Source: Eledone cirrhosa (taxonomy: Eukaryota). Taken from it: a stretch of 64,000 nucleotides of DNA. Positions 1-62,462 of this stretch are shown here, one piece after another. The position numbers and the translations under genes are program-made. The notes under the pieces were generated by a model. It saw nothing but the letters and a program-made list of their open reading frames with translations. It did not search any database and was not told the origin of the DNA. The stretch spans positions 186,001-250,000 of the forward strand of contig OZ024752.1 of NCBI GenBank assembly GCA_964016885.1. Direction: 5' to 3'. The stretch's first letter is position 1. Each line of letters opens with the position of its first letter.

Positions 1-27
1 TAAATAGCCGAACTTGTCAAGGGGTAC
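1..27 (-). ncRNA. 5' half of a large U3-A8 hammerhead (cut by window edge)
   Basis: Minus strand reads acccc-UUGACAA-gttcggcta. Homologous to 29282-29306, with the variable core position 7 differing (C vs G). Confidence 0.55.
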
Positions 28-429
28 TTCCTTATATGGGAAGATTGTCAAGAGGATTGGTTAAAATTTGTTGTAAACACAAATAAGTCTAATATATATA
101 TATAATATATATATATACAATCTTGTAACAGATTAAAAGCAGAATGTAGAGGAGGCACAAAAGAGAATAGCAATTGAGGAGGTCACATTTTCTACACGTG
201 TACATTTTTTAGACATGTTTATAAAACCTATATATTGATTCTTCATTTAAGCACAACACCTGCAAATGTTTGGGAAAGGTAAAGTTGATTTCATCAACCC
301 CAGTACTTTACTGGTACTTTATTTTATCGACCGCGGAAGGATGAAAGGCAAAGTCGATGCGAACTCAATGTAAACAGCTAGAAAAATGATATATATTTTA
401 TCTGGTGTTCTATAATATGTATATATTAG

Positions 430-1162: not shown

Positions 1163-1543
1163 GCTATTGTTTCCTCCCGTTGCATTGTATGTCTACGCCA
1201 TTTTTATTCAGTCTGTCTATATATTTATTTATTTATTTGTTTGTTTGTTCATTTTATTTTGTCTTCTTTGCGATGCGTTTGCGTATGTGTATAGTGTTTT
1301 GTTTGATGTGTGGTCGTGATTGGGTGACTAGTGTGTGTTTATATGTGTTTGTGGTTATTGTGCTTGTGTATGTATTTATTTATTTATCTATTTATTTATT
1401 TATATATGTTGTCTATGTTACCGTCGTGTTGTTGTCTGGCATGTTCGTATAGTACTGACCCGTTTTTTCGTCCTTTTAGTTCCCCCAGTGTTGGTCTATC
1501 CTTTCACCTATGCTACGAGCTGTCTCACCTATGTATGTTGTTG

Positions 1544-1578
<35 letters not shown>

Positions 1579-3417
1579 CAGAGAAGAGCTGAGGAGGCCT
1601 GGGCCATTGAGAAGATCAAACTCAATCCCAAAGTGTTCTTTTCATTTGCAAAAAAACACAAAATCACTGGCTCTACTGTTGGCCCTCTAATTGATGAAAA
1701 TGGCACTCTTCAAGACAATGCTAAAACCATGGGTGAGATACTGCAGAAACAATACTGCTCTGTTTTCAGCAATCCTGATATGGCCGATCTGGGCTGTATC
1801 GGCGATGTTACTCCCCATTACACCTTATCGGACATAACGTTTGGCGCCCCTGATGTCTTGGCGGCAATAAAGGAAATCAAGCATAATTCAGCAGTAGGTC
1901 CCGATAGGTTCCCTGCTTGTGTCTTGAAGGCGTGTCAACACCAACTTGCATCTCCTCTTGCCAATCTGTGGCGGAACTCACTGGATGCTGGATATGTGCC
2001 AGAAAACCTTCTATCCCAGTCTGTTGTCCCAGTTTTCAAAAAGGGAAACAAATCCCTTGCCGTGAATTACCGTCCAATCTCACTCACCTCTCATATCATT
2101 AAGGTATTTGAGCGAGTGGTGAGATCGCGAATGACCCACTTCCTTGAGAGTAACAATATGCTGAACTCCAACCAGCATGGATTCCGTAATGGAAGGGATT
2201 GCCTGACGCAGCTACTGCATCACTTTGATGACATTTTGAGAGCCTTGGGAGAGGGTTCCAACACTGATGTTATCTACCTTGATTTCAGCAAGGCCTTTGA
2301 CAGGGTTGATCATAACATTCTACTGAGAAAGCTGTCCAATATTGGTGTCACTGGAAAGCTGCTGCAGTGGATCAAGAGCTTCCTGTCAAACAGAACCCAA
2401 CATGTTGTAGTTGAGGGAGTCAAATCCAGCCCAGCCAAAGTCAGTAGTGGGGTCCCACAAGGCACTGTGTTGGGCCCACTTCTCTTCATCATCTATATTA
2501 ATGACATCACTGACATCATCAAACACAGCAACATTAAAATTTTCGCTGATGATTCCAAGCTCCAAAAGGTCATCAATGGCGTGGATGACCGGATAAGCCT
2601 TCAGTCAGACCTACTGGCTGTTACCCAATGGACGGAAAAGAACAACATGTTACTGAACGAAGACAAATTCGAACTGATCCACTTTGGAAAAGAGGATGCT
2701 CTGAAACTCCCGTACTCCCTTCCCTCCGGGGCATCCAACAACATCAGAGACTTGGGAGTAACCGTGGACAGCAACATAAGCTGGACCACGCATATAAGCA
2801 GCAAAGTTGACATGGCCCGCAGAATGTGTTCCTGGATCCTCAGAACCTTCCAGTCGAGAGATTCCCGCACCATTATCCTTCTCTTCTCTACTTTTGCCCG
2901 ACCACACCTTGAATACTGTTGTCCACTGTGGTTTCCCCACACGAAACAAAGTATCATGAAACTTGAAGCTCCTCAAAGGGCAATCACGAAAAAGATAGAT
3001 GGCATGTCAGACCTTGACTACTGGGGTCGATTAGAAAACCTGAAACTTTACTCACTCCAACGTCGCCGTGAGCGTTATATTATCTGCATGATGTGGAAAA
3101 TGTTCCATCATCACTGCCCAAATGATGTTGGCATCGCCTTCAAGATACACCCAAGGCTTGGGCCCCGTGCTATCCGTCCCATTCAAAAATCTAAATCGCA
3201 ACTCATAACAACAATACGGCACAATTATTTCACCTCAATCGGCCCTGCTCTCTTCAACATCACACCAGGACACGTCAAAACAGAAACTGACCACACAAAA
3301 TTCAAGAAGTCTTTGGACAAATTCCTCCAAGTAATCCCGGACAAACCACCCACACCCGGATATGTCTCCGCAAACAGTAATTCTCTTCTCGAATGGGCCA
3401 TGGTGCCCAAATCCTGA
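1579..3417 (+). CDS. 5'-truncated non-LTR retrotransposon ORF2 (reverse transcriptase plus C-terminal region), CR1/L2 group
   Basis: Uninterrupted frame with [69 protein letters not shown] and SLQRRRER. No endonuclease domain; the sequence starts right after a (TA)n tract. Confidence 0.93.
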
Positions 3418-12155: not shown

Positions 12156-12469
12156 ACTGTATATCACACACACATATACACACACAGGCAGTACGTTTCG
12201 CCTTACAAAACCACCTTACCACACCGTATAACAGGTAGCACGTTAAGTCACAACAGCAGATACCACCACCACCGCCACCACCACACATACTCCGAAGTAA
12301 CGCAGCTTCCCCCACACATATATACAAACACACACATACACCGTGACAACACACAACACCACCACCACCACTGTCATACATATAAAGACATCACACACCA
12401 CCACCACTCTCACAGTCAGACACACTCGGCCGTAATATACCACACACACACACACACCAGACATATACA

Positions 12470-15400
12470 CTAAGACACAGCCTACATACATACACTACAG
12501 TCACACACACAGACACAGCCTACATACATACACTACAGTCACACACACAGACACAGCCTACATACATACACTACAGTCACAACCTACATACATACACTAC
12601 AGTCACACACACACAGACAGACACAGCCTACATACATACACTACAGTCACACACAGAGACACAGCCTACATACATACACTACAGTCACACACACAGACAC
12701 AGCCTACATATATACACTACAGTCACACACACAAAGACACAGCCTACATACACACACTACAGTCACACACACACAGACACAGCCTACATACACACACTAC
12801 AGTCACACACACAAAGACACAGCCTACATACATACACTACAGTCACACACACACAGACACAGACTACATACACACACTACAGTCACACACACAGACATCC
12901 TACACACACACACTACAGTCACACACACAGACATCCTACATACATACACTACAGTCACACACACACACAGCCTACATACATACACTACAGTCACACACAC
13001 ACATCCTACATTTATACACTACAGTCACACACACACAGACACAGCCTACATACATACACTACAGTCACACACACAGACACAGCCTACATACACACACTAC
13101 AGTCACACACACACAGACACAGCCTACATACACACACTACAGTCACACACACACAGACACAGCCTACATACACACACTACAGTCACACACACAAAGACAC
13201 AGCCTACATACATACACTACAGTCACACACACAGACACAGCCTACATACATACACTACAGTCACACACACACAGACACAACCTACATACACACACTAGTC
13301 ACACACACAAAGACAGCCTACATACATACACTACAGTCACACACACAGACACAGCCTACATACATACACTACAGTCACACACACAGACACAGCCTACATA
13401 CATACACTACAGTCACACACACAGACACAGCCTACATACATACACTACAGTCACACACACAGACACAACCTACATACATACACTACAGTCACACACACAG
13501 ACACAGCCTACATAAACACACTACAGTCACACACACAGACACAGCCTACATACATACACTACAGTCACACACACAAAGACACAGCCTACATACACACACT
13601 ACAGTCACAGCCTACATACACACACTACAGTCACACACACAGACACAGCCTACATACATACACTACAGTCACACACACACAGACACAGCCTACATACACT
13701 AGTCACACACACACAGACACAGCCTACATACATACACTACAGTCACACACACACAGCCTACATACATACACTACAGTCACACACACAGACACAGACTACA
13801 TACATACACTACAGTCACACACACACAGACACAGCCTACATACATACACTACAGTCACACACACACAGACACAGCCTACATACACACACTACAGTCACAC
13901 ACACAGACACAGCCTACATACATACACTACAGTCACACACACAGACACAGTCTACATACACACACTACAGTCACACACACACAGACACAGCCTATATACA
14001 CACACTACAGTCACACACACACAGACACAGCCTACATACATACACTACAGTCACACACACACAGACACAGCCTACATACACACACTACAGTCACACACAC
14101 AGACACAGCCTACATACATACACTACAGTCACACACACAGACACAGTCTACATACACACACTACAGTCACACACACAAAGACACAGCCTACATACACACA
14201 CTACAGTCACACACACACAGACAGCCTACATACACACACACAGACACAGCCTACATACACACACTACAGTCACACACACAAAGACACAGCCTACATACAT
14301 ACACTACAGTCACACACACAAAGACACCCTACATACATACACTACAGTCACACACAGACACAGCCTACATACACACACTACAGTCACACACACAGACACA
14401 GCCTACATACACACACTACAGTCACACACACACACAGACACAGCCTACATACATACACTACAGTCACACACACACAGACACAGACTACATACATACACTA
14501 CAGTCACACACACACAGACACAGACTACATACATACACTACAGTCACACACACACAGACACAGCCTACATACACACACTAGTCACACACACAGACACAGA
14601 CTACATACATACACTACAGTCACACAGACACAGACTACATACATACACTAAAGTCACACACACAGACACAGCCTACATACACACACTAGTCACACACACA
14701 GACACAGACTACATACACACACTACAGTCACACACACACAGACACAGCCTACATACACACACTACAGTCACACACACAAAGACACAGCCTACATACATAC
14801 ACTACAGTCACACACACAGACACAGCCTACATACATACACTACAGTCACACACACACAGACACAACCTACATACACACACTACAGTCACACACACAAAGA
14901 CAGCCTACATACATACACTACAGTCACACACACAGACACAGCCTACATACATACACTACAGTCACACACACAGACACAGCCTACATACATACACTACAGT
15001 CACACACACAGACACAGCCTACATACATACACTACAGTCACACACACAGACACAACCTACATACATACACTACAGTCACACACACAGACACAGCCTACAT
15101 AAACACACTACAGTCACACACACAGACACAGCCTACATACATACACTACAGTCACACACACAAAGACACAGCCTACATACATACACTAGTCACACACACA
15201 CAGCCTACATACATACACTACAGTCACACACACACAGCCTACATACACACACTACAGTCACAGCCTACATACACACACTACAGTCACACACACAGACACA
15301 GCCTACATACATACACTACAGTCACACACACACAGACACAGCCTACATACATACACTAGTCACACACACACAGCCTACATACATACACTACAGTCACACA

Positions 15401-16130
15401 CACAGACACAGACTACATACATACACTACAGTCACACACACACAGACACAGCCTACATACATACACTACAGTCACACACACAAAGACAGCCTACATACAT
15501 ACACTACAGTCACACACACAAAGACAGCCTACATACATACACTACAGTCACACACACACAGACACAGCCTACATACACACACTACAGTCACACACACAGA
15601 CACAGCCTACATACATACACTACAGTCACACACACACAGACACAGCCTACATACACACACTACAGTCACACACACAAAGACACAGCCTACATACACACAC
15701 TACAGTCACACACACACAGACACAGCCTACATACATACACTACAGTCACACACACACAGACACAGCCTACATACACACACTACAGTCACACACACAGACA
15801 CAGCCTACATACATACACTACAGTCACACACACAGACACAGCCTACATACACACACTACAGTCACACACACAAAGACACAGCCTACATACACACACTACA
15901 GTCACACACACACAGACACAGCCTACATACACACACACAGACACAGCCTACATACACACACTACAGTCACACACACAAAGACACAGCCTACATACATACA
16001 CTACAGTCACACACACAAAGACACCCTACATACATACACTACAGTCACACACAGACACAGCCTACATACACACACTACAGTCACACACACAGACACAGCC
16101 TACATACACACACTACAGTCACACACAACC
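12470..16130. repeat. ~38-42 bp minisatellite (cagcctacatacatacactacagtcacacacacagaca)n, ~3.6 kb
   Basis: Direct reading; head-to-tail units with variable CA count and no unique spacers. Confidence 0.95.
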
Positions 16131-16339
16131 ACACACACATATACCACAGATACACAATCACGCAGTCACACACACACTCACACATACCACAGAGACACAA
16201 TCACACACAGTCACACACACACTCACACACACATACCACAGAGACACAAACACACACACACTCACACAGACACACAGATTGCACATTTCTTCATTTCAAG
16301 TCACAACAGCACAGCCAAATAGACGTCACAGAGTCACAC

Positions 16340-17940
16340 ATACATACACACAGCACAAACCACACCACACACCACACCACACTACACCACACTACACCAC
16401 ACCACACCACACTACACCACGCCACACCACACTACACCACACCACGCCATACCCCACCCCACCACACACACCACATTACACCACGCTACACGACAGCACA
16501 CTACACCACACCAAACCCCACCCCACCCACCACACTACACCACACCACACAACACTACACCACACCACACTACACCACATCACACTACACCACACTACAC
16601 GACACCCACACCACACTACACCACACCACATCACTACACCACTCATATCACTCCACCACATCATTACACTACACCACATCACTACACCACTACACTACAC
16701 CACATCACTACACCACACCACATCACTACACCACACCACATCACTACACTACACCACACCATATCACCACACCACATCACACCACATCACCACACAACAT
16801 CACCACACCACATCACTACCCCACACCACATCACTACACTACACCACATCACTACACTACACCACATCACTACCCCACACCACACCACACCACATCACTA
16901 CACCATACCACATCACTACCCCAACCACACCACACCACATCACTACACCACACCACATCACTACCCCACACCACACCACACCACATCACTACCCCACACC
17001 ACATCACTACACCACACCACATCACTACACCACACCACATCACTACACCACACCACATCACTACCCCACACCACACCACATCACTACCCCACACCACATC
17101 ACTACCCCACACATCACTACCCCACACCACATCACTACACCACACCACATCACTACACCACACCACATCACTACCCCACACCACATCACTACACCACACC
17201 ACATCACTACACCACACCACATCACTACCCCACACCACACCACATCACTACCCCACACCACATCACTACCCCACACATCACTACCCCACACCACATCACT
17301 ACACCACACCACATCACATCACTACCCCACACCACATCACATCACTACCCCACACCACATCACATCACTACCCCACACCACATCACTACACTACACCACA
17401 TCACTACACCATACCACATCACTACCCCACACCACACCACATCACCACACCACATCACTACCCCACACCACATCACTACCCCACACCACACCACACCACA
17501 TCACCACACCACACCACATCACTACCCCACACCACATCACTACCCCACACCACATCACTACCCCACATCACCACACCACACCACATCACCACACCACACC
17601 ACATCACTACCCCACACCACATCACTACCCCACACCACATCACTACCCCACACCACATCATTACCCCACACCACATCACTACACCACACCACATCACTAC
17701 CCCACACCACACCACACCACATCACCACACCACACCACTACACCACACCACATCACTACCCCACACCCCATCACTACACCACACCACATCACTACCCCAC
17801 ACCCCATCACTACACCACACCACATCACTACACCATACCACATCACTACCCCACACCCCATCACTACATCACTACACCACATCATTACGCCACACCACAC
17901 CACGTCACTACACCACACCGCACAGCTACACCACACCACC
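16340..17940. repeat. (CACCA)-derived satellite (ccacaccacatcacta)n
   Basis: Direct reading. Confidence 0.92.
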
Positions 17941-17982
17941 ACAGATCACATCACAACAGTCTCGTCTTCACAAGTAAGCACT

Positions 17983-18034
<52 letters not shown>

Positions 18035-21306: not shown

Positions 21307-21503
21307 TAGTCAGTTCTTAGATATGCCAGCTCTGTGTTTATAGTGTTGATGGAATCAGAGCCTTGGGACTATATATATATATATATAAATAGGAAAAAGT
21401 ATGACCCCGACGGTAGAGCTCAAGCCGTTTCGACGGCTATTTCTGGACTATTGAGTACTCTGGTGCGTTATGGTCCATTTGGTTCCTTACCACAACTCCT
21501 TCG

Positions 21504-21859: not shown

Positions 21860-22196
21860 AAAGGACCACCACATTTTATAATTATTATATATATATATTA
21901 TATATATATATATATCAGGATGGATTCAGTTTGAATCTGGTTAGATCATTTCTCACCAGAGTACTCGAGACTTTGGGATAGTAGAGTATGATTATATTAT
22001 AAGGAGTCTGGACTAGCTGTTGAAACAGCAAGAGCTCAGCCGTCGGGGTCCTGACTCTTTATGATATATATATATATATATAAAGATGTAAAAATATATA
22101 CACGCTTCAACAGCATTCTAATAAATATATATTGCATGTATATATTGCATGTATAGGTAATCAAAGTGTGAATACATTTTTGGGGACACACACCCG

Positions 22197-24710: not shown

Positions 24711-25609
24711 TTACTGTGTGTGTAGGTATGTATACATATGTGTGTGTGAGTGAGTGAGTGAGTGAGTGAGTGAGTGAGTGAGTGAGTGAGTGAGTGAGTG
24801 AGTGAGTGAGTGAGTGAGTGAGTGAGTGAGTGAGTGAGTGAGTGGGTGAGTGAGTGAGTGTGTGAGTGTGTGAGTGAGTGTATGTGTGTATGTGTATCTG
24901 GGTCTGTGTGTATATCTGTATGTGTGAACGTGTGTGTGTGAGTGTGTGAATGTGTCCGCACACCCGTGCGAATTTCTGTGCGTGTGTTCACATGGCCTTC
25001 TCGCTTCGCCGAATATAAGTATTGTATTTAAGTATATAAGAAAATCAAATATATCATTCCAGCTTCTTATTGTTCTCTCGCTACCAAAGAAATTTTGTCT
25101 GAATACTTCTACAGTAGAGTTTCTGAGATTCGATAAAGAAAGGGGAAAAAAAATTGTTTTAATCGAAAATCAGTACAGGTTTGAATCTAATCGAAGGTGA
25201 TAGGCTTGGCAGTTTCAATCATAGCTCTCCTTATCATTGGCTCATATCTCATCTTTACTTGATTAAATTTGTGGTCATCATTTTTGTAGATAATAAATGT
25301 CGCCATTGTTAAACAATCTTCTAGAACCGTTGAGCAATAGGAACGTTTCAAAGGTACAAGCAACAACGTTGTTTGACTATGAAAAATAGTCTAAGTTGAG
25401 TACAGAAACCCTAGTGACGGAAAATATTTGTACAATGCCCACATTTTTTCCGTCACCAGGATTTTAATGCCCATCTTAGACTATTTTTCAAACTATTTTT
25501 CAGAGTCCTTGTGATATGATGTTCGCGAACAATTTGTGTAATTAATTTTTTGAAATAGTTGTCATACAGTAGTTAGTCTGCAGACAAATAGAATCTATAT
25601 TCTATGAAT

Positions 25610-25830
25610 AATTGTTTCTACTTTAGACACAAGACCAGCAATTTGAAGAGTAGGGGGAAAGTCGATTAAATCGACCCCAGTGCATTACGGGTGCTTTATT
25701 TATCGATGCTGTAAGGATGAAAGGCTAAGCTAACCTCGGCAGGATTTGAATACAGAACGTAAAGGGCCAAACTGTAACCTGCAAAGTATGGTGTCCGACG
25801 GTCTACCGATACTGCCAATCCACCACCCCT
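25610..25830 (-). mobile_element. tRNA-derived SINE family A (long form)
   Basis: Minus strand ggtggattggcagtatcggtag (A-box), gtattcaaatcc (B-box-like), gcctttcatcc..gataaa central domain, and tail ending gtagaaacaatt. Confidence 0.75.
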
Positions 25831-26194
25831 CCTATATTCTATAAATAATATATCATGTTATCGAGTGAGTTTAATTAATGTCTGGGATTTTCTTCAACAG
25901 TTATGTATGGATCTACACAAGAAGAGCCTTTGGTTAAGGTGTAGAACTCACGCCTGCTATCTCACTGTTGTCACTTCAGTCATACAACATTGATGCTTCT
26001 AACTTTCAAATCCAAAACGTCGTCATATTAAATGTAATAAACAGCAAAACAAAAAAAGAAAGTCGGCGCAAGTTCTCAACATTTGCATGTCAAAAACATA
26101 GTTTCTGCTTTTCATACATTTGTATAGAATGATAGATGTATTACGAAACATGTGCACTTATGTATGCTTACATTAGCGGAAAACCGCTGCTGTT

Positions 26195-27883: not shown

Positions 27884-28361
27884 TCTACAGATATCAATCT
27901 CTTTATTTCTAATGTAGACTGTAAAGAGAGACATTTGTCAATGAACAAGAATGTAATTTCCACAGATAGACGCAACACAATCAATCATGTAGAGATGCCG
28001 ACTTTTATATGTCTTACATTTGCTTTAAACTTTGTAAACACTCTAGTGGTCGTAAGAATGATCTTAGAGCACTGAGGTATTTGGAAATTACCAATTAATA
28101 ATGGTTTCTAATTTAGGCACAAGCCTATCAATTTCAGTGGAAGGGCAAGTTGACCCAACTATTTAACTGGTACCTTATTCTACCCCTACTTTTTATGTAT
28201 TTTTTTTTCTTCGTAATGTCTCTTCATTCAGCGTCCTTATTGCAAATAAACGGAATCATTATTATTAATATCTGTTTGTAGATTGATTCTACAAAGAACA
28301 TACATACCCACGTGTATCACACCACACCTCTAGCTCTTCATATTAACAAACAAGTTCAAAA

Positions 28362-28553
28362 TAATTGTTTCTACTTTTGGCACAAGGCGGGTAATTACCC
28401 AGTACATTACTGGTACTTTATTTTATCGACCCCGTAAGGATGAAAGGCAAAGTTAACCTTGGCGGGATTTGAACTCAGATCATAAAGGCGCGTAACTCTG
28501 TGCTGCAAAGCATAGCGTCCGACCCTCTACTGATACTGCCATATCCAACTGCC
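28362..28553 (-). mobile_element. SINE family A (short form) with 11-bp TSD ttcaaaataat
   Basis: Consensus match; TSD at 28355-28365 and 28554-28564. Confidence 0.85.
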
Positions 28554-29059
28554 TTCAAAATAATGTCTTTACATAAGACACGTCTCAACATGCTCTCTTT
28601 AATCTGCCCTTTCTCACAGTCCTTGTATAATTTCTTAACGGAATGCCTCCAATCATTCTAATTTACTGCCAGCTCTTACCAATCGCTAACATTTCATTTG
28701 CTTGTTTATTTGTTGATTTTCTTTTTTATTAGTATTTTATATTTAGTGGTTAGGTTATTCAGATCAAGATGGTAAGACCATGTGTTCGATTCCCGGTGGT
28801 GGCTCGTTGTTTACTTCAGGTAAACACTTTATTTCTTGTTGCTCCACTCCACTTAGCTAACAAAAAATTAGTTGTGCCTGTGATTCAAAGAGGCAGCCTT
28901 GTGACACAGGGTGTCACGTTGTGTCACGTGTTGTGTTACACTAAATCTTCCTGAGAACTACGTTTAGGGGGCACGTAGGACTAGAGGAACATTAAAATTT
29001 TCGATTTGGAGCTATTACTACCATGGATACCACCACAAAAACACACACACACACACACA

Positions 29060-29107
<48 letters not shown>

Positions 29108-29212
29108 TATATATTCACCAAGCGTGAACCTAATATAACTGTACAATTGCCTCCTGTGTTTTGTTCGTTTATTTCAACTATATATATATATATATATATA
29201 GGAACCGGTAAG

Positions 29213-29306
29213 ACCCCGACGGCTGAGCTCAAGCCGTTTCGACGGCTAATTCAGGACTAAATGAAAATTTATCCTGGTATTTAAATAGCCGATCTTCTCA
29301 AGGGGT
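29213..29306 (-). ncRNA. Large type I hammerhead ribozyme, U3-A8 core variant
   Basis: acccc-UUGAGAA-[ga/tc, cggcta/tagccg, cagga/tcctg, taaat/attta]-GAAA-cggct/tgagctc/agccg-UC-ggggt. All three stems pair. Confidence 0.75.
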
Positions 29307-29660
29307 AATTCCATATATGGTCAAAGTGATTGTCAAAAGTCAGTAGTAATTCTGTGATTGCAAATTAGTAGGGGAGATGGTGGCTAAACCTGCCAGTGGG
29401 AGAAAAAGGGGAGGGGTGGAGTAGACCCAATCATGCGTATCTTCTTTGACCTCATGCCCAGCTGTAGATGGCACTACCAACGCATGATTGGGTCTACTCC
29501 ACCCCCTCCCCTTTTTCTCCCACTGGCAGGTTTAGCCACCATCTCCCCTACTAATTTGCAATCACAGAATTACTACTGACTTTTGACAATCACTTTGACC
29601 ATATATGGAATTACCCCTTGAGAAGATCGGCTATTTAAATACCAGGATAAATTTTCATTT

Positions 29661-30517
29661 ATAATAATAATAATGAAATTATTGTGTACAGTGCTCAGGT
29701 GCACTACAACTCATCAAAGGTGCATGTATAGTACATAGAATAATGTACAAATGTCAGGAAAATGAACAGTGTACGAGTCATGATATAATAACAATAACAA
29801 TAATGAAATATTGTGTACAGTGCCCAGCTGCACCACAACTCATCAAAAAAGTGCATGTACATAGGGCAATGCACAAGTCATGATACACACATGTGTGCAT
29901 GTGCATGGAAGGGGTACATCAGGTGTAGTTTTGGCGTATTTCGGGAAGCATGAGTGTCTTAAAGGATGCAGTGTCTCGGCAGCTAACAATTGACGCAGGC
30001 AGTTTGTTCCATGCTTCAGCAACTCTGAGCGTGACAAAATGTCTACGAAAGTCATGGGAGCTGTGCTGTTTTCTGATCTTGTAGGCATGTCCACGTGTGT
30101 TAGAGACATGGAGATCAAAGAGGCGCTCAGGGTTGCAATTGGCGAGATGGTTAAAAACTTTGTGGGTATTCACCAAGTCCATTGCCAGACGTCGGAGCTT
30201 CAATGAATCCATGCCCAGGGAAGCAAGGCGTTCAGAGTATGGTAGGTGTCTGATGGAGGGTATGCGCTTGGTTGCACGTCTCTGAACAGTTTCCAGGAGG
30301 TCAATGTTCTGAGCAAGATAGGGGTTCCAGACTGATGATGCGAATTCCAAGTGTGGTCGTACCATAGCTGTATACAGTTTTAAATAGATGGCTGGAGAGC
30401 GGCTAACAAAGGTCTTGCTGAGTGATGCCAAGACACCCTCGGCCTTCTTGACAATCTTAGAGACATGCTTTGTCCAACGCAAATCGTTGCTGACAGTAAT
30501 GCCCAGGTCACGTTCAA
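29661..30517 (-). mobile_element. 5'-truncated CR1/L2-group LINE (C-terminal ORF 29919-30482, duplicated 3'UTR, (ATT)n tail)
   Basis: RPHLEFASSVWNP, LETVQRRATK, YSERLASLG, TRGH and WNKLP; short TSD attta. Confidence 0.88.
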
Positions 30518-30657
30518 TTTAGTCCTGAATTAGCCGTCTAAACGGCTTGAGCTCAGCCGTCGGGGTCTTACCGGTTCCTATTACCCACTCTACTACCCTA
30601 AGTATTGAGTACTTTGGTGCGTTATGGTCCACCTGGTTCCTTACCACATTTCCTTCG

Positions 30658-30710
<53 letters not shown>

Positions 30711-31031: not shown

Positions 31032-31064
<33 letters not shown>

Positions 31065-31065
<1 letters not shown>

Positions 31066-31121
31066 AATGTAAGTATGTATGTATACGTACATACATATAT
31101 GTATACAGACGTACAGTAGCA

Positions 31122-31173
<52 letters not shown>

Positions 31174-31708
31174 CATACACACATATACATACAGGTACAC
31201 ATACATATATGCACGTATCAGTTTAGCGGACGCTTATTATAACGCCGCTTTGTTCGTTTGTAAACAAACTGAACAGCCTGAATTTATGCCGTACGGTGTT
31301 AAGGCAACCACGTCACCTTTTTGTTCAACACTGACACTAAGAGTGAGAAATGAAATTTCGTTTTCATTTTATTTCAACTTATCGTTTTCGGTATGCCTGA
31401 CTGACTTAACTCACTCGATATGCAAATTAGGCTGCTCAGCCGTTAATTTTCATAAGGAAAGTATATACTTTCGAACGTTCAACTATCTGGCAGAAGGGTA
31501 TACGGTGCTGATGATAGCTAACAAGCTTGAAACTAGTACATCGTTCCTGTGTCAGTGTTGAACAAAAAGGTGACGTGGTTGCCTTAACACCGTACGGCAT
31601 AAATTCAGGCTGTTCAGTTTGTTTACAAACGAACAAAGCGGCGTTATAATAACCGTCCGCTAAACTGATACGTGCATATATGTATGTGTACCTGTATGTA
31701 TATGTGTG

Positions 31709-31756
<48 letters not shown>

Positions 31757-31813
31757 TGCTACTGTACGTCTGTATACATATATGTATGTACGTATACATA
31801 CATACTTACATTT
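31065..31813. mobile_element. Fold-back element with ~270-bp inverted arms and a hammerhead in the spacer
   Basis: 31065-31337 is the reverse complement of 31549-31813; the spacer start ctaagagtgagaaatg... is repeated directly at 31827-31871. Confidence 0.85.
31502..31544 (+). ncRNA. Minimal type I hammerhead
   Basis: acggtg-CUGAUGA-u-agct/aaca/agct-u-GAAA-ctag-UA-catcgt; 6-bp stem I with one G.U pair. Confidence 0.7.
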
Positions 31814-31869
31814 AAGTAAGTGCCGTACTAAGAGTGAGAAATGAAATTTCCTTTTCATTTTATTTCAAC

Positions 31870-32931: not shown

Positions 32932-33018
32932 GTAGGAGGTGAGTTTTATTGTAGTACAATAAAGCAATGCAGATATCGGATAAGAAGCACTCTACAGTTT
33001 GTAGGACTGGAGTATACA

Positions 33019-33356
33019 TAATATATAAGAACAAAAGATGGTTAAAAGAGTTCCATGTATTTTATTATGCGCATTTAAAAAACAAATATCATCATGCAAT
33101 AATATTTGTGTTTTAATCAGATAAAACAGGAAGACATGATATGAAGATTAAAAAACACTTGTGGATAGTGCAGTTTTAAATCAACATATGTTGATTTAAA
33201 ACTGCACTATCCACAAGTGTTTTTTAGCCTTCATATCATGTCTTCCTGTTTTATCTGATGAAAACACAAATATTATTGCATGATGATATTTGTTTTTTAA
33301 ATGCGCATAATAAAATACATGGAACTCTTTTAACCATCTTTTGTTCTTATATATTA
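33019..33356. repeat. Spacerless palindrome, ~170-bp arms, centre 33187/33188
   Basis: ...tttaaatcaacat|atgttgatttaaa...; only a few mismatches between arms. Confidence 0.92.
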
Positions 33357-33568
33357 TATATATATATATATATACTATATATATATATATATACTATATA
33401 TATATATATATATATACTATATATATATATATATGAATGTATGTATGAGTGTGTGTGCACCACCTTTCTCGTGTTACTTTCATTACAATTTGATCATTCG
33501 AAAGACGAAACTTTTAATTATTTGAAGAAGTGATTCTCTTTTTAGGTGTTAAAAAAATCGTTATATAT

Positions 33569-42002: not shown

Positions 42003-42399
42003 TCTATATATCTAAAACAGAGAATGTCTGTCTGTCTGTCTGCTCACTATAACTGGAGAACCACCCAACCGATTGTTTTCAAACTTTACACATGTAATAC
42101 TTATGGTCCTGTGAGTGTTTTGAGCATTAAGCGATTTAGCGATCTCTCTCTATAATTCTTAGTCTTTCTTTTTAGATAGATACATAGATATAACGTTGCA
42201 CCCTTATAATATCTGTCTGTATGTCTGGCTGTCTGCATTACGACATTATGACGCTGTGTGTGTGTGTGTATATATGTATATATAGTGTGTAACGTTTTTC
42301 GAAATATTTACTTCTGCGTTCACAGATTGATTTTTTTAGTTTCAGAAGATCCTGTTAAGGGTGAAAGCAGCGATTCTTTGCTTAAACTTTAATCTGTTA

Positions 42400-42462
<63 letters not shown>

Positions 42463-42579
42463 TAAAATAACAGATTAAAGTTTAAGCAAAGAATCGGTGC
42501 TTTCACCCTTAACGGGATCTTCTGAAACTTGATATATATTTATCCTTATCGAGCCATCTTTGGATTTTAGTCTTCAAAT

Positions 42580-42780: not shown

Positions 42781-42870
42781 TATATAATATAATATTGGCA
42801 GCATAACCATCACAAAATATAACAATATAATATATGATATAAAATATATATAATATAATATAATATAATA

Positions 42871-43057
42871 TAATTGTTTCTACATTTTGGCACAAGGCCA
42901 GCAATTATCCAGTGCATTACTGGTACTTTATTTTATCGACCCCGTAAGGATGAAAGGCAAAGTCAAGCTCGGCGGGATTTGAACTCGGATCGTTAAGGGA
43001 CATAACTATGTTGGAAAGCATGGCGTCCGACCCTCTACCGATACTGCCAATCCACCG
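42871..43057 (-). mobile_element. SINE family A (short form)
   Basis: Consensus match. Confidence 0.85.
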
Positions 43058-43094
43058 ATAATATAATATAATATAATATGATATAATATATATA

Positions 43095-43151
43095 TATTCT
43101 GACGACTGAAGACAGACACAACATCTGCCTTCAAGAAACCACTGGTAAATG
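43095..43151 (+). ncRNA. Type I hammerhead candidate
   Basis: tatt-CUGACGA-c-tgaagacaga/cacaaca/tctgccttca-a-GAAA-ccactgg-UA-aatg. Confidence 0.5.
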
Positions 43152-43200
43152 AAATAATTATCTTATGTTGTTTATTACATAACTAAATATATATATATAT

Positions 43201-43406
43201 AGAAAAAAAGATGAAATCGAAAATGCAACTGGATTCTTATTTTTTTAAAAAATATATATATTTATTTGGTTCCTTTACCGGTTTCGCAGTGCTTCTGCTT
43301 TTCAAAAGCAGAAGAACTGCGAAACCGGTAAAGGAACCAAATAAATATATATATTTAAAAAAAAAAATAAGACTCCAGTTGCATTTTCGATTTCATCTTT
43401 TTTTCT
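43201..43406. repeat. Palindrome (~100-bp arms, 1-nt spacer at 43303) made from the 31985-32094 hammerhead element
   Basis: Arms match 31985-32090; the centre lies in ttttcaaaa, the ribozyme core. Confidence 0.92.
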
Positions 43407-43840
43407 TTATACTTTCACTCGTGTAGGACACCTCGGTTATTTTTCATTTTGTAAAAAAAACCTCACTTTCTTATATATATATATATATATATATATATTT
43501 GGTTGGTCTGGAAGAAGAGACAATGTCTTTCTCTCTGAATGCGCTCCGTCTAAGATATAGGTGTATATGTAGCAGCGGCTCAATTCCAGATTTTGGAGCA
43601 GCACTCCATTGAGGCCCCCTCACCTGAGCATTGTAGATGATCCACAACTGGATTAATTATTCAGTAACATATGTACGTGCTTAGTGCATGAAGGGAGGTA
43701 GGGTGCCATTTGATTTAGATTAAATGCATTTGCCATAAAAAAACGATTTCTTTATTTAACACAAATGGTTTACATTAAGAAAACATTAGGACAGCTCAGG
43801 ACGAAAACATAGTGTGTGCGTGTGTGTGCGTGTGTGTCTC

Positions 43841-51684: not shown

Positions 51685-52071
51685 ATAATTGTTCCTACTT
51701 TTGGTACAAGGCCAGCAATTTGAGAGTGAAGGTGAAAATCGATTAGATGGACCTCAGTACTTTACTCGTGTTTATTTTATCGACATCGAAAGGATGAAAG
51801 GTAAGGCTAACCTCGGCAAAACATAAAGGGCCGTAACTGGTATCCGACGCTCTACCAATTCTGCTAATCCAGGTCAACTTAATAATAATTGTTTCTACTT
51901 TTTGGCACAAGGCCAGCAATTATTCCAGTGTATTACTGGTACTTTATTTTATCGACCCCGTAAGGATGAAAGGCAAAGTTAACCTCGGCGGGATTTGAAC
52001 TCAGTCCGTAAAGGGACGTAACTGTGCTGCAAAGCATGGCGTCCGACCCTCTACCGATACTGCCAATCCAC
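51685..52071 (-). mobile_element. Two tandem SINE A copies (old long form plus young short form)
   Basis: Consensus matches at 51685-51875 and 51886-52071. Confidence 0.8.
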
Positions 52072-52817
52072 TAATACTAATGGTTTCTGATTTACGCTCA
52101 AGGTCAACAATTTTGGGGGAGGGGAAAAACGATTATATTTTGTACCACATTCCGAAATTCGTCATCGCTTCTGGATTTTATTCTTCCATCAGCTCCTACT
52201 TTTAAAAGCACCTCCGTTGATTTGGTCACCTGTTGTGACTCATCGGACAAGCAGTCAGACCCGATGGCGTAAACAGCGCAAACGCGAATTAGCACGATCA
52301 AGTCGGATGCTGGGCGAATATCTGCTCCTCCTATATATAGTGTCTGCCGTTGGAATCGTGACTGGTTGCCAGTATCTATGTTGAACTTATTTGATTTGCC
52401 GTGTGTTGGTAGCCCCTGTTGGCAACGTTGTGGATACACTGGTTAAAGCTAGATCAATCCAGCCTGGCTGAACGCCGACACAATTGCTGGACCTCCGTCC
52501 GTTACGACAACGATTGCTCCAACCTTTCAAACAACGGATCTACGTGTTCTTGAAATTAACGTGCAATTTGGTCAGTTTGAGTCAACGTGACATAATATGT
52601 GACAAAGTTGACCATTTGAAATACAAGTACGATATTTATTTTTTAGCAGCTGGGTGCAAAGCAGAAACGTGTTGTAAAATATCTTGCTCAAGGACAAAAT
52701 ACGCCGACAAGAACTGAACATCGAGATCACCATGCCGCGTGTTTCCTTGCTGGCACAAATACAAGTAGACGTACTTATAAATTTAAACGCACACAAACAC
52801 ATTCTCCCCCCCCCCCC

Positions 52818-53149: not shown

Positions 53150-53539
53150 TATGAATGTACTTATGTGCGTTTGTTATTTTGAATATCATAAGATGTTTTC
53201 GACTGTTCACGAAACTGGAAATAGCGTCAGTGAATACCATACCGGAAATAGGACAGGTAGTTCTTTAATACATACACACACACATGTGTATATATATATG
53301 TATACACACATACACACTTCTCTCGTCGCGAACGACAGATGAGGATTCAGCAAGGATATATATATATATATCTGTCTCTCTCTCTGTGTGGTGTGTGGTG
53401 TGTGGTGTGTGGTGTGTGGTGTGTGTGTGTGTGTGTGTAGGTCTGATGTGGCATATACTCTAGTAAGCAGTGGTAAATACATATGGCTCATGTATAGGTT
53501 ATCGCGATATACATATAACATACGTGATGTACTTAGAAA

Positions 53540-53960
53540 TAATTGTTTCTACTTTTGGCACAAGGCCAGCAATTACCCAGTGCATTATTGGTACTTTATT
53601 TTATTGACCCCGTATGGATGAAAGGCAAAGTCAACCTCGGCGGGATTTGAACTCAGATCGTAAAGGGAGGTAACTATGCTGGAAAGCATGGCGTCCGACC
53701 CTCTATCGATACTGCCAATCCACCGCCCTTGCCAGAAATAATGGGTTCTGATTTAGGCACAAGACCAACAATTGTGGAGGGAGGAACATGTCGGTTAAAT
53801 CTACCCCAGTGCATTACTGGTACTGTAGTTTATCGACTCCGAAGGGATGAAAGACAAAGCTAACCTCTGCGGGATTTCAACCCAGGACGTAAAGTACCGT
53901 AGCCATATGCTAGAAAGAACGTTGTCGAACGCTCTAGCGACATCGTCAATTCCCGTCTCG
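53540..53960 (-). mobile_element. Two tandem SINE A copies
   Basis: Short form 53540-53728 and long form 53740-53960. Confidence 0.8.
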
Positions 53961-54914: not shown

Positions 54915-55040
54915 ACATATATATAACCAGTACTGGCATTGATAAATATGCTGGGTCCGTCAACTCCTTATAAAAAAAAAAATAAAAAAAAAATAAAAAG
55001 AAAAAGAAAGTTATATATATATAAATGAAAATAGAGAAAT

Positions 55041-55626
55041 TAATTGTTTCTACGTTAGGCACAAAGCCAGCAATTACCCAGTGTATTACTGGTACTTTAT
55101 TTTATCGACCCCGTAAGGATGACAGGCAAAGTTAACCTCGGTGGGATTTGAACTCAGAATGGCAAGGGCCCTAACTCTATGCGTCAAAGCATGGCGTCCG
55201 ACCCTCTACCGATACTGCCAATCCACCGCCCTAATGAAAATAGAGAAATAATTGTTTCTACTTTTGGCACAAAGCCATCAATTACCCAGTGCATTACTGG
55301 TACTTTATTTTATCGATCCCGTAAGGATGAAAGGCAAAGTTAACCTCGGCGGGATTTGAACTCAGAATGATAAGGGCCGTAACTCTATGCGTCAAAGAAT
55401 GCCGTCCGACGCTCTACCGATACTGCCAATCCAAGAGAAATAATTGTTTCTACTTTAGGCACAAGGCCAGCAATTACCCAGTGCATTACTGGTACTTTAT
55501 TTTATCGACCCCGTAAGGATGAAAGGCAAAGTCAACCTCGGCGGGATTTGAACTCAGATCGTAAAGGGACGTAACTATGCTGGAAAGCATGGCGGCCGAC
55601 CCTCTACCGATACTGCCAATCCACCG
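55041..55626 (-). mobile_element. Tandem trimer of SINE A (55041-55231, 55249-55432, 55441-55626)
   Basis: Three full short-form copies separated by copies of the target sequence. Confidence 0.9.
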
Positions 55627-55847
55627 GAGAAATAATGAATAGAAAATAGAAAATGAAAATAGAGAAATTAATGTGAGCAAGAAGCCAACATTAATTCATA
55701 CATATAAGTGACTATTACGTCAAGATGGAAAATATTTAACGTAAGATATGGGAAAATAATTCAATCCCAATTCAAAAAAAGTCAAGACAGAAATTTTATC
55801 CACAGATTTTGTGTAATCCAGGGAATATATATATATATACTCGTATA

Positions 55848-55953
55848 TCAAGGGTGTCCTCAAAAATATATACATACTTCCATTACCTTTACCTGTACAG
55901 AAAATATTTATTAGAACGCTGTTGAAGTGTGAATACATTTTTGGGACTCACGG
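55848..55953. mobile_element. Tc1-like MITE (second copy near 22090-22200)
   Basis: Imperfect TIRs gggtgtcctcaaaaatatatacatact / agtgtgaatacatttttgggactcac, with TA flanks. Confidence 0.45.
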
Positions 55954-55972
55954 TATATATATATATATATAA

Positions 55973-56006
<34 letters not shown>

Positions 56007-56134
56007 CGAAGGAAATGTGGTAAGGAACCAGTTGGACCAACCATAACGCACCTTTTTTTTTTTTTTTTTTTTTTTTCTAGTCCAGAATTAGCCGTCGAAA
56101 CGGCTTGAGCTCAGCCGTCGGGGTCCTACTCGTT

Positions 56135-56178
<44 letters not shown>

Positions 56179-56573: not shown

Positions 56574-56796
56574 CACTACTTGTGTTTTTATAATTGTTGT
56601 GTATACATGAATATATATAGAGAGAGGGAGCTGGAATTACACTCACATACACACATACATTTATATATGTATATATATATACACCACTACTTGTGTTTTT
56701 ATATATGTAATTATGTATGTACATGCATGTGTTCATGTGTATAAATATGTATATGTATGTGTGTGTGCGTTTGTGCGTGTGTGTATATTTATATAT

Positions 56797-56987
56797 AATT
56801 GTTTCTACTTTAGGCACAAGGCCAGCAATTATTCCAGTGTATTACTGGTACTTTATTTTATCGACCCCTTAAGGATGAAAGGCAAAGTTAACCCCGGCGG
56901 GATTTGAACTCAGAATGGCAAGGGCCGTAACTCTATGCGTCAAAGCAATGCGTCCGACCCTCTACCGATACTGCCAATCCCCCGCCC
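56797..56987 (-). mobile_element. SINE family A (short form)
   Basis: Consensus match. Confidence 0.85.
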
Positions 56988-57225
56988 TATATATTTGTAT
57001 ATTTATATATAATGTATATATATTTGCATGTATATTTATATATAATGTATATATATAATATATATATACATATTTGTGTGCGTCAGAGAGTGTGTTCGTT
57101 ATGTGTCTGCAAATGCAACTATGTCCGTATACTGTTCGACATTTATACGAGACATTTTTACAATTCGTAAATGATACTACGTACACAAAATCATTGTATA
57201 AGGAGTTGCACGTGTGTGTGTGCGC

Positions 57226-61365: not shown

Positions 61366-61416
<51 letters not shown>

Positions 61417-61436
61417 CTATATACATATATATATAT

Positions 61437-61481
<45 letters not shown>

Positions 61482-61518
61482 AAAGAATAGAGGTGTAACA
61501 CACGAGTTATGATATATT

Positions 61519-61797
61519 GGTAAAAGGAAAAGAAAATGCTGACAAATTGTTCCCAGTGAAAAATAGTTTAATTAGGAATAAGTAAAAATTAGTAATAGTA
61601 TTGGTTAGTATTCAGATTAGAGCAAACATCACGGGCGCTCTATCTCAAAATTATTTTTGAAAAGCATTAGAAATGTGCAACCGGTAAAACTTAAAACCAG
61701 GACTGAATACTAACCAATACTATTACTAATTTTTACTTATTCCTAATTAAACTATTTTTCACTGGGAACAATTTGTCAGCATTTTCTTTTCCTTTTA

Positions 61798-61799
<2 letters not shown>
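61519..61799. mobile_element. Fold-back element, 97-bp perfect arms, degenerate U3-A8 hammerhead in the spacer (61654-61689)
   Basis: 61519-61615 is the reverse complement of 61703-61799; ttt-UUGAAAA-gcatt/aga/aatgt-GCAA-ccgg-UA-aaa. Confidence 0.85.
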
Positions 61800-61871
<72 letters not shown>

Positions 61872-61874
61872 CAC

Positions 61875-61905
<31 letters not shown>

Positions 61906-61912
61906 CATACAC

Positions 61913-62225: not shown

Positions 62226-62455
62226 TATAAACGTTTGTATTTGTAAAGCCAAAACAATGCAGGTATGGATATAGAATATAAATGCAAATGCAAAAGATAT
62301 TGTTGACAATTAGTCTTTTACCTTAAATTTATTTAAATATATTAAGGATATTTAAATAAATTTAAGATAAAAGACTAATTGTCAACAATATCTTTTGCAT
62401 TTGCATTTGTATTCTATATCCATACCTGCATTGTTTTGGCTTTACAAATACAAAC

Positions 62456-62462
<7 letters not shown>
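62226..62462. repeat. Palindrome, 115-bp arms, 7-nt spacer
   Basis: 62226-62340 is the reverse complement of 62348-62462 with ~2 mismatches; TA-flanked. Confidence 0.92.

Follow-up and report, generated by a model that had tools for sequence, protein, structure and literature searches.

The 64,000-nt stretch of Eledone cirrhosa DNA analysed here (hereafter the window) carries, on its minus strand, a 94-nt sequence with the appearance of a hammerhead ribozyme, and it raises the questions of whether this motif is genuine, what kind of element carries it and how the motif relates to the start and the cutting of that element's RNA. Positions are numbered with the G that follows the GUC triplet as +1 (29217, minus strand) and C17 as -1 (29218).

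29213..29306, minus strand: type I hammerhead motif with a UUGAGAA core (U3-A8) and a GUC triplet, identified by sequence, fold and descriptor control.
29217..29218, minus strand: predicted cleavage position, with C17 (29218) on one side and G (29217, +1) on the other, placed by hammerhead geometry and by the pile-up of copy ends at +1.

The 94-nt hammerhead shape that the initial annotation had described on minus strand 29306-29213 is borne out by both structural checks: the minimum-energy fold is a three-way junction at -29.6 kcal/mol (z -2.41, with 4 of 200 shuffles equally good), and a hammerhead descriptor has one match in the window and 0 in 100 shuffled windows. Read along the minus strand, stem I is formed by ACCCC (29306-29302) and GGGGU (29217-29213), the UUGAGAA core occupies 29301-29295 and GAAA 29240-29237, the base of the 54-nt stem II arm is a pair between G 29294 and C 29241, followed by CGGCUA (29291-29286) paired with UAGCCG (29248-29243), and the palindromic helix III joins ACGGCU (29237-29232) to AGCCGU (29224-29219), with C17 at 29218. 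Three helices surround the core and the chain ends lie in stem I, the arrangement of a type I hammerhead; folded with its flanks, stem I is predicted to lengthen with a bulge. U4 G5 A6, A9, G12 A13 A14, A15.1-U16.1 and H17 are all present in the window copy, and the core letters are invariant or nearly so among aligned copies, most of which were found by patterns holding those letters. Positions 3 and 8 form a Watson-Crick U-A pair in place of C3-G8, as had been claimed, in the window copy and in 71 of 100 full motifs listed, and the U3-A8 variant had already been published for Penelope-like element (PLE) hammerheads of Schistosoma mansoni, in the accessible text of PMC4209133. Rfam returned no hammerhead model at gathering score (0) and none among 35 matches at E<=10; its miRNA-like matches were rejected because they arise from the inverted repeat. 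We conclude that 29213..29306 is a real hammerhead motif, of a known kind in a known clade, differing in size.

Stem I, CGGCUA/UAGCCG and the helix III pairing stood as annotated, whereas ga/tc and cagga/tcctg, also assigned to stem II, occur only in some copies. Among 94 motifs, from loci enriched for the window's subfamily, the second base of ga/tc is A in 43, C in 38 and T in 13, and cagga/tcctg is private to the window copy (1/94), 83 reading TCCAG instead; at the base of stem II a single G-C pair is constant. In the aligned copies stem I is paired in 15/15, the second stem II pair in 1/15 and the sixth helix III pair in 6/15; covariation comprises one compensatory pair, in 3/15 rows, and is not significant, as 80/500 shuffles reached its score. 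The 100 full motifs listed, counted by eye, comprise 71 U3-A8, 27 C3-A8, 2 U3-G8 and 0 C3-G8, and 4 of 5 C3 loci inspected are true substitutions. The C3-A8 mismatch subfamily (loci L043, L044, L055 and L056) offers a natural test of whether cleavage matters.

The helices are predicted at a probability of 0.95 in the window copy against 0.05 for a competing hairpin, whose probability reaches about 0.74 when one copy typical of the family is folded together with its flanks, and helix III is likely (over 0.85) in three of seven other copies and unlikely in four; the suggestion of bistability was therefore a fair prediction. The motif is larger than minimal PLE hammerheads, as the initial annotation had it, and a monomer fold is possible, but helix III is an 18-nt palindrome with a single additional U, and the predicted energy of a dimer (-75.7 kcal/mol) is below that of two monomers (-59.2), so the claim that it should fold as a monomer, unlike PLE hammerheads, was too strong.

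Judged by its sequence, the element to which the motif belongs is a young Hydra-clade Penelope-like retrotransposon, with the hammerhead in its terminal repeat. The initial annotation had recognised neither this element nor the start site within stem II that is proposed below. The unit, read from a head-to-tail array, measures 3,531 bp, with the motif at the junction of units, and an ATG at +191, 190 nt past the motif's cut site, opens a 717-aa frame. This single ORF encodes a reverse transcriptase (RT; YRDD at 348) with a C-terminal GIY-YIG domain (VIY..YIG at 591), together with RWR at 37, DKT at 117, CNCPDRSIC at 572 (CxCx5C), CNLC at 670 and CKH at 698; it lacks CX2-5CxxC and CCHH motifs and has one C within the GIY-YIG core. 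These motifs match the definition of Hydra in the accessible part of PMC8557442, from which we assign the clade, and the element also shows (TA)n insertion, a pseudo-LTR, an inverted arm and a tail. Its N-terminus resembles that of Hydra-1_Obim by eye, the best homologue carries GIY-YIG, the best 120 of 2,036 homologues are 38-53% identical, and a Pfam scan of the protein gave no match. The Neptune clade was rejected for want of the CX2-5CxxC linker and the CCHH motif, a non-LTR retrozyme (non-coding, in tandem units of about 300 bp) because the unit is 3,531 bp and coding, and the frame at 1480-3417 as the element's own ORF because it encodes a LINE-type RT (RVT_1).

The family is abundant, its fragments numbering in the tens of thousands genome-wide: exact genome-wide matches number 25,039 for a 26-mer, 3,274 for a full-motif pattern and 21,236 for a tail pattern, and some of the best 40 of 1,436 candidate copies scored are 97-98% identical. 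Nine of the 30 best protein matches hold the whole ORF, of which seven reach upstream of the entire hammerhead, one ends at -40, one at +39 and none at +1, which indicates that RT usually passes the start site proposed below. In one four-unit array (L102/L103, 437.2 Mb) the units differ by 0-1 base and alternate (1=3, 2=4), which suggests duplication of a dimer or an assembly effect. Further Penelope-like families adjoin the element, one (L032, reverse, 455-aa frame) Poseidon-like by eye and another (L035, reverse, 215-aa frame) a diverged Hydra-like family beside it.

Within the window the motif sits in a two-armed insertion at 29200-30659 flanked by (TA)n tracts.

29200..29437, minus strand: first arm, the element's 3' terminal repeat with the intact motif, ending at +18 to +20 in (TA)n.
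29438..30659, plus strand: second, inverted arm, its hammerhead interrupted and with TAAA replacing GAAA.
29662..30516, minus strand: LINE 3' fragment inside the second arm's stem II, with flanking duplicated ATTTA and a 199-aa frame.
30580..30659, plus strand: 80-nt tail, the next part of the unit's 5' leader, ending at +98 to +100 and followed by (TA)n.
1..54, minus strand: 5' part of a hammerhead copy of another subfamily, the whole copy having a GCC cut triplet (sequence read into the neighbouring stretch).
56070..56158, minus strand: short copy with only the 3' half of the hammerhead, beginning just upstream of the inferred start.
21368-21450 and 22008-22094: pieces like the short copy at 56070..56158.
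1480-3417, plus strand: LINE-type RT frame of 645 aa (RVT_1, E 1.7e-31), 5'-truncated at a TA tract.
25596-25858, 28351-28565, 42844-43098, 51755-52122, 53530-53940, 55024-55636 and 56784-57024: copies of a repeat of ~190-200 bp.

The insertion crosses the cut site without a scar, since both of its arms extend some 220-260 nt further upstream. The long 3' end at 30650-30660 reads CTTCGTTAT, and the same word follows the hammerhead of the published Hydra-2_Amil consensus; it is possibly a shared RT start motif. The LINE fragment, which we take to be of CR1/L2 type and in which a Pfam scan of the 199-aa frame gave no match, lies between ATTTA duplicates at 29657-29661 and 30517-30521. Its point of entry into the second arm is the initiator-like ATTTA itself, which corresponds to the start site proposed below; AT-rich targeting may have brought this about by chance. 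The initial annotation had noted at 1-27 a second copy whose core differs only at position 7; this is correct for the 5' core, but the whole copy carries GCC, not GUC. At 55930-56158, as at L213, L252 and L275, long T or A runs stand at the junction just upstream of the proposed start, perhaps through cDNA slippage or tailing. A close relative of the LINE-type RT frame at 1480-3417 occurs in locus L019. Other long inverted repeats, at 33013-33362, 31064-31814, 62226-62462, 43196-43411, 42338-42529 and 61408-61909, are possibly two-armed insertions of further Penelope-like families. The repeat of ~190-200 bp occupies at least seven places, 85-96% alike and partly in tandem, and minisatellites with periods of 38 and 18 at 12442-18000 show an extreme C-over-G strand skew. 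No host gene was found in the window among the frames listed, three of which were scanned against Pfam.

We asked of the copies where their ends fall, reading all junctions from the genome assembly alone. At the 3' side, 73 ends in 59 loci fall at two places before (TA)n, 34 at +18 to +20 and 31 at +98 to +100, with two running on into the unit and six elsewhere, and it follows that the cut site is not the maker of the insertions' 3' end. By analogy, the two fixed ends (+19 and +99) match the two internal RT start sites described for Poseidon_Ac in the accessible text of PMC11167929.

At the 5' side, we surveyed 90 tailed copies out of 21,236, the first ones listed, which follow one another along a single contig. 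Their ends lie at -26 to -45 in 56 copies (some of those at -45 being chance extensions), at -1 to -25 in 16, beyond -90 in 10, at +2 to +8 in six, at -46 to -78 in two and at +1 in none. In 44 two-armed copies both arms end between -24 and -45, mostly between -34 and -45, in a scan that reached about -47. The zone of these ends, which are spread over about 10 nt and not set at a single base, contains TTAGTC or TCAGTC, words that we take to resemble the Drosophila initiator consensus.

29255..29260, minus strand: initiator-like TTAGTC within stem II, with the inferred capped start at A 29258 (-41), placed by the copy-end cluster and a cap-type extra base.

Antisense arms stopping at A(-41) before C or T number 2,441, and among 100 of them listed the extra base, counted by eye, is C in 86 and T in 14; microhomology explains about 15 of the C rows, without which the ratio is about 70 to 14 (p 4e-10). 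Several copies bear the C mark at A(-41) on both arms. Among 189 arms examined as a control, G precedes the end on the sense strand in 7 and A in 3 at -41, compared with G in 5 and A in 16 at five other positions at which either letter could occur, with position -48 (G 6, A 1) excluded because G is a subfamily variant there. An older sister family has TTAGTT at an equal distance from GAAA and gives 73:27 among 100 listed of 252. In L1, an extra untemplated G has been recognised as a possible trace of the cap, according to the accessible text of PMC9341517; our literature search on cap or non-templated junction marks found nothing. The copy ends make it highly probable that the RNA starts, capped, at 29258 (A -41), inside the ribozyme's stem II. 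With such a start the 5' end of the message would hold only the 3' half of the ribozyme, and the long stem II arm would be explained as the seat of the promoter.

A second, smaller class of 5' ends points to the cut site itself. Tailed copies without C17 number 921, and of the first 30, 18 begin exactly at +1 while 12 are point changes or other ends, which extrapolates to roughly 550 copies, about 3%; against it stands the absence of +1 ends among the 90 unselected copies, where 2-3 are expected, so the class is small. There are 693 short head-to-head junctions, and among the first 50 parsed, 32 have inserted bases. The 64 arm ends of these 32 junctions fall at +1 in 36 cases, +3 in six, +2 in five and -1 in four, a peak at +1 relative to the two neighbouring positions with p 1.7e-10, although exact matching shifts a few mutated arms. 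Of 100 junctions listed, 22 have both arms ending at +1 and 1-6 bases added, the first of which is A in 15, T in six and C in one (both counted by eye); the +1 ends thus bear no cap mark. A further 12 of the 100 are ambiguous, being palindromes without a flaw about the C-G step. The older sister family gave no clear +1 pile-up, with 1 to 3 of about 39 loci ending there on both arms, by eye. The +1 ends are what reverse transcription would leave on running off a template whose uncapped 5' end lies precisely at the hammerhead cut, and we consider it probable that the +1 class is the footprint of in vivo cleavage after GUC.

Taken together, the genomic marks favour, with reasonable though not high confidence, an RNA whose capped start lies inside stem II and which the ribozyme cuts at GUC only some of the time. 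An internal promoter would start the RNA at A(-41), giving a message whose 5' end is half a ribozyme and keeps its cap, and a whole ribozyme would form only where RNA runs through the downstream repeat. Reverse transcription would start internally at +19 and +99 and run off the template's 5' end, which would be the cap in most copies and a ribozyme-cut end in about 3%. The ribozyme would be leaky, with one constant stem II base pair, a competing hairpin and a tolerated C3-A8, and cutting would not be required for each insertion; scarless copies across the cut site, the window's included, would stem either from RNA that escaped cutting or from a switch of template between repeats. Counting against this scheme are the spread of ends over about 10 nt, the lack of +1 ends in the 90 unselected copies, the C3-A8 state of 27 of 100 motifs, a covariation score that does not exceed the shuffles and the lack of a clear +1 peak in the older family, as well as reports that Poseidon_Ac had no RNA-seq reads ending at its hammerhead site and that its cleavage required protein (PMC11167929, in the portion available).

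Each of the two classes of 5' end could have another origin. A splice acceptor (TTTTCATTTAG), or a strong RT stop caused by the stem II hairpin, might account for the 5' wall in stem II; TTTTCATTTAG does resemble an acceptor, the ends are spread, and a Drosophila virilis PLE intron ends at helix I in the accessible text of PMC4209133. The 90 copies, however, have no shared exon attached upstream at -39 or -34, and two families show a C bias that goes with A(-41), so that we hold this origin to be very improbable. The +1 ends could likewise have formed with no cleavage, as RT stops at the folded junction, exonuclease stalls or CCCC/GGGG microhomology joins. Amplification of the C3-A8 subfamily, a competing hairpin that models favour in several subfamily copies, the older family without a +1 peak and the 12 ambiguous palindromes all speak for such an origin, but the +1 peak was counted solely on junctions with inserted bases and is one base wide, the 22 junctions with both arms at +1 and added A or T have the layout seen at the capped end, and a helix III stop would be expected at -1, where only four ends lie. 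This origin seems to us decidedly unlikely.

The remaining readings concern how copies come to cross the cut site. The cut may set the 3' end of an RNA with a 41-nt terminal repeat (-41 to -1), such that strong-stop cDNA made near the 5' end moves to the 3' repeat, as in retroviruses; pseudo-LTRs and tandems would then form without a circle, which would extend the capped, partly cut RNA proposed above without excluding it. The start at -41 and the cut at -1/+1 do bracket a repeat, short run-off copies predominate, seven of the nine ORF-complete copies pass the start site and the four-unit array differs by 0-1 base. Against it, no subfamily chimera across -41 to -1 was found in 123 motif occurrences (a search of low power, as some loci overlap), a cap letter followed by resumed upstream sequence occurs in 0 of 100 listed rows by eye, and uncut read-through of tandem donors accounts for the same copies; we rate such a transfer as possible but doubtful. 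Alternatively, a unit-length RNA cut at both ends might be ligated into a circle and reverse transcribed beyond one round, the model put forward by Cervera and de la Pena (2014) in the available text of PMC4209133. Such a circle would leave behind near-identical tandem units and copies that cross the cut site without a scar, as are seen here, and the +1 copy ends show that RNA with such 5' ends likely exists. An RNA starting at -41, however, would be missing the 5' half of its upstream ribozyme, a modelled two-piece co-fold of one family-typical copy favoured the competing hairpin, on which ground assembly of a split ribozyme from two pieces was rejected, and cap-marked ends number 2,441 against about 550 cut-site ends, a rough comparison of different patterns; the circle is thus unlikely in our estimate. 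Strand transfer, circle and read-through could each give rise to the full-length copies, and the empty chimera search does not favour one over another.

A capped start inside stem II with occasional cutting at GUC would bear on two published questions: the accessible text of PMC8557442 describes as unclear what the hammerhead does in Penelope-like elements that bear an endonuclease, and that of PMC2377424 gives no known mechanism for pseudo-LTR regeneration. Taken only as a hammerhead, the motif adds a modest new variant, and its interest lies in the proposed start site and the likely cleavage footprint. A high-copy family of this kind gives base-level genomic marks of the putative start site, cut site and both RT starts, which turn these questions into defined assays, and end-mapping needs a genome only and is applicable to other families. 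If strand transfer were the true course, the promoter would lie inside the hammerhead, the message would be capped and the ribozyme would cut only the far end; the origin of pseudo-LTRs and tandems would be explained, and thousands of fossil intermediates would mark the steps to the base.

The nearest known system is the Hydra clade (Craig et al. 2021, PMC8557442), which in its accessible description shares with the present element a C-terminal GIY-YIG, RW[KR], DKT, a CxCx5C linker and no CCHH, as well as (TA)n targets, a type I hammerhead near the 3' end, an inverted 5'-truncated arm and a tail at one end. The octopus family Hydra-1_Obim is listed there among Hydra elements, but its hammerhead is a different sequence from the motif here. 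All 26 of the 26 published Hydra hammerheads in that text have a CUGA core, a loop 2 of 3-10 nt and a helix III of 3-4 bp, whereas the Eledone cirrhosa element has U3-A8, a 54-nt stem II arm, a helix III of 5-6 bp and a 7-9 nt palindromic loop; arm and helix III sizes absent from those 26 rows make it a new variant in size. The unit is also longer (3.5 kb versus mostly under 3 kb), as is the tail (80 nt versus 30-40).

The minimal hammerheads of metazoan PLEs (Cervera and de la Pena 2014, PMC4209133) are likewise type I, located in a terminal repeat and provided with G10.1-C11.1 and a palindromic helix III; the main text of that paper describes a large, monomer-stable helix III from fungal and protist PLEs and not from animals, and its accessible part gives no in vivo evidence of PLE hammerhead cleavage. 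Our literature search, with subscription papers mostly outside it, returned no start site within a PLE hammerhead and no genomic copies whose end coincides with its cut site. The one reconstituted system, Poseidon_Ac of Anolis (Frangieh et al. 2024, PMC11167929, as far as its accessible text goes), is similar in that two internal RT starts past the hammerhead define the tail, targets are AT-rich and the hammerhead is dispensable for insertion in vitro, but it belongs to another clade, its start codon lies within its hammerhead, and no reads end at its cut site, whereas here genomic copies do. The closest parallel for such ends is found in R2 with its HDV-like ribozyme (Eickbush et al. 2013, PMC3774820, in the available portion), where the cut site is mirrored in the 5' junctions of copies; R2 differs in its ribozyme and RT class, and the cut there sets the normal 5' end, whereas in the Eledone element it would account for a minor class.
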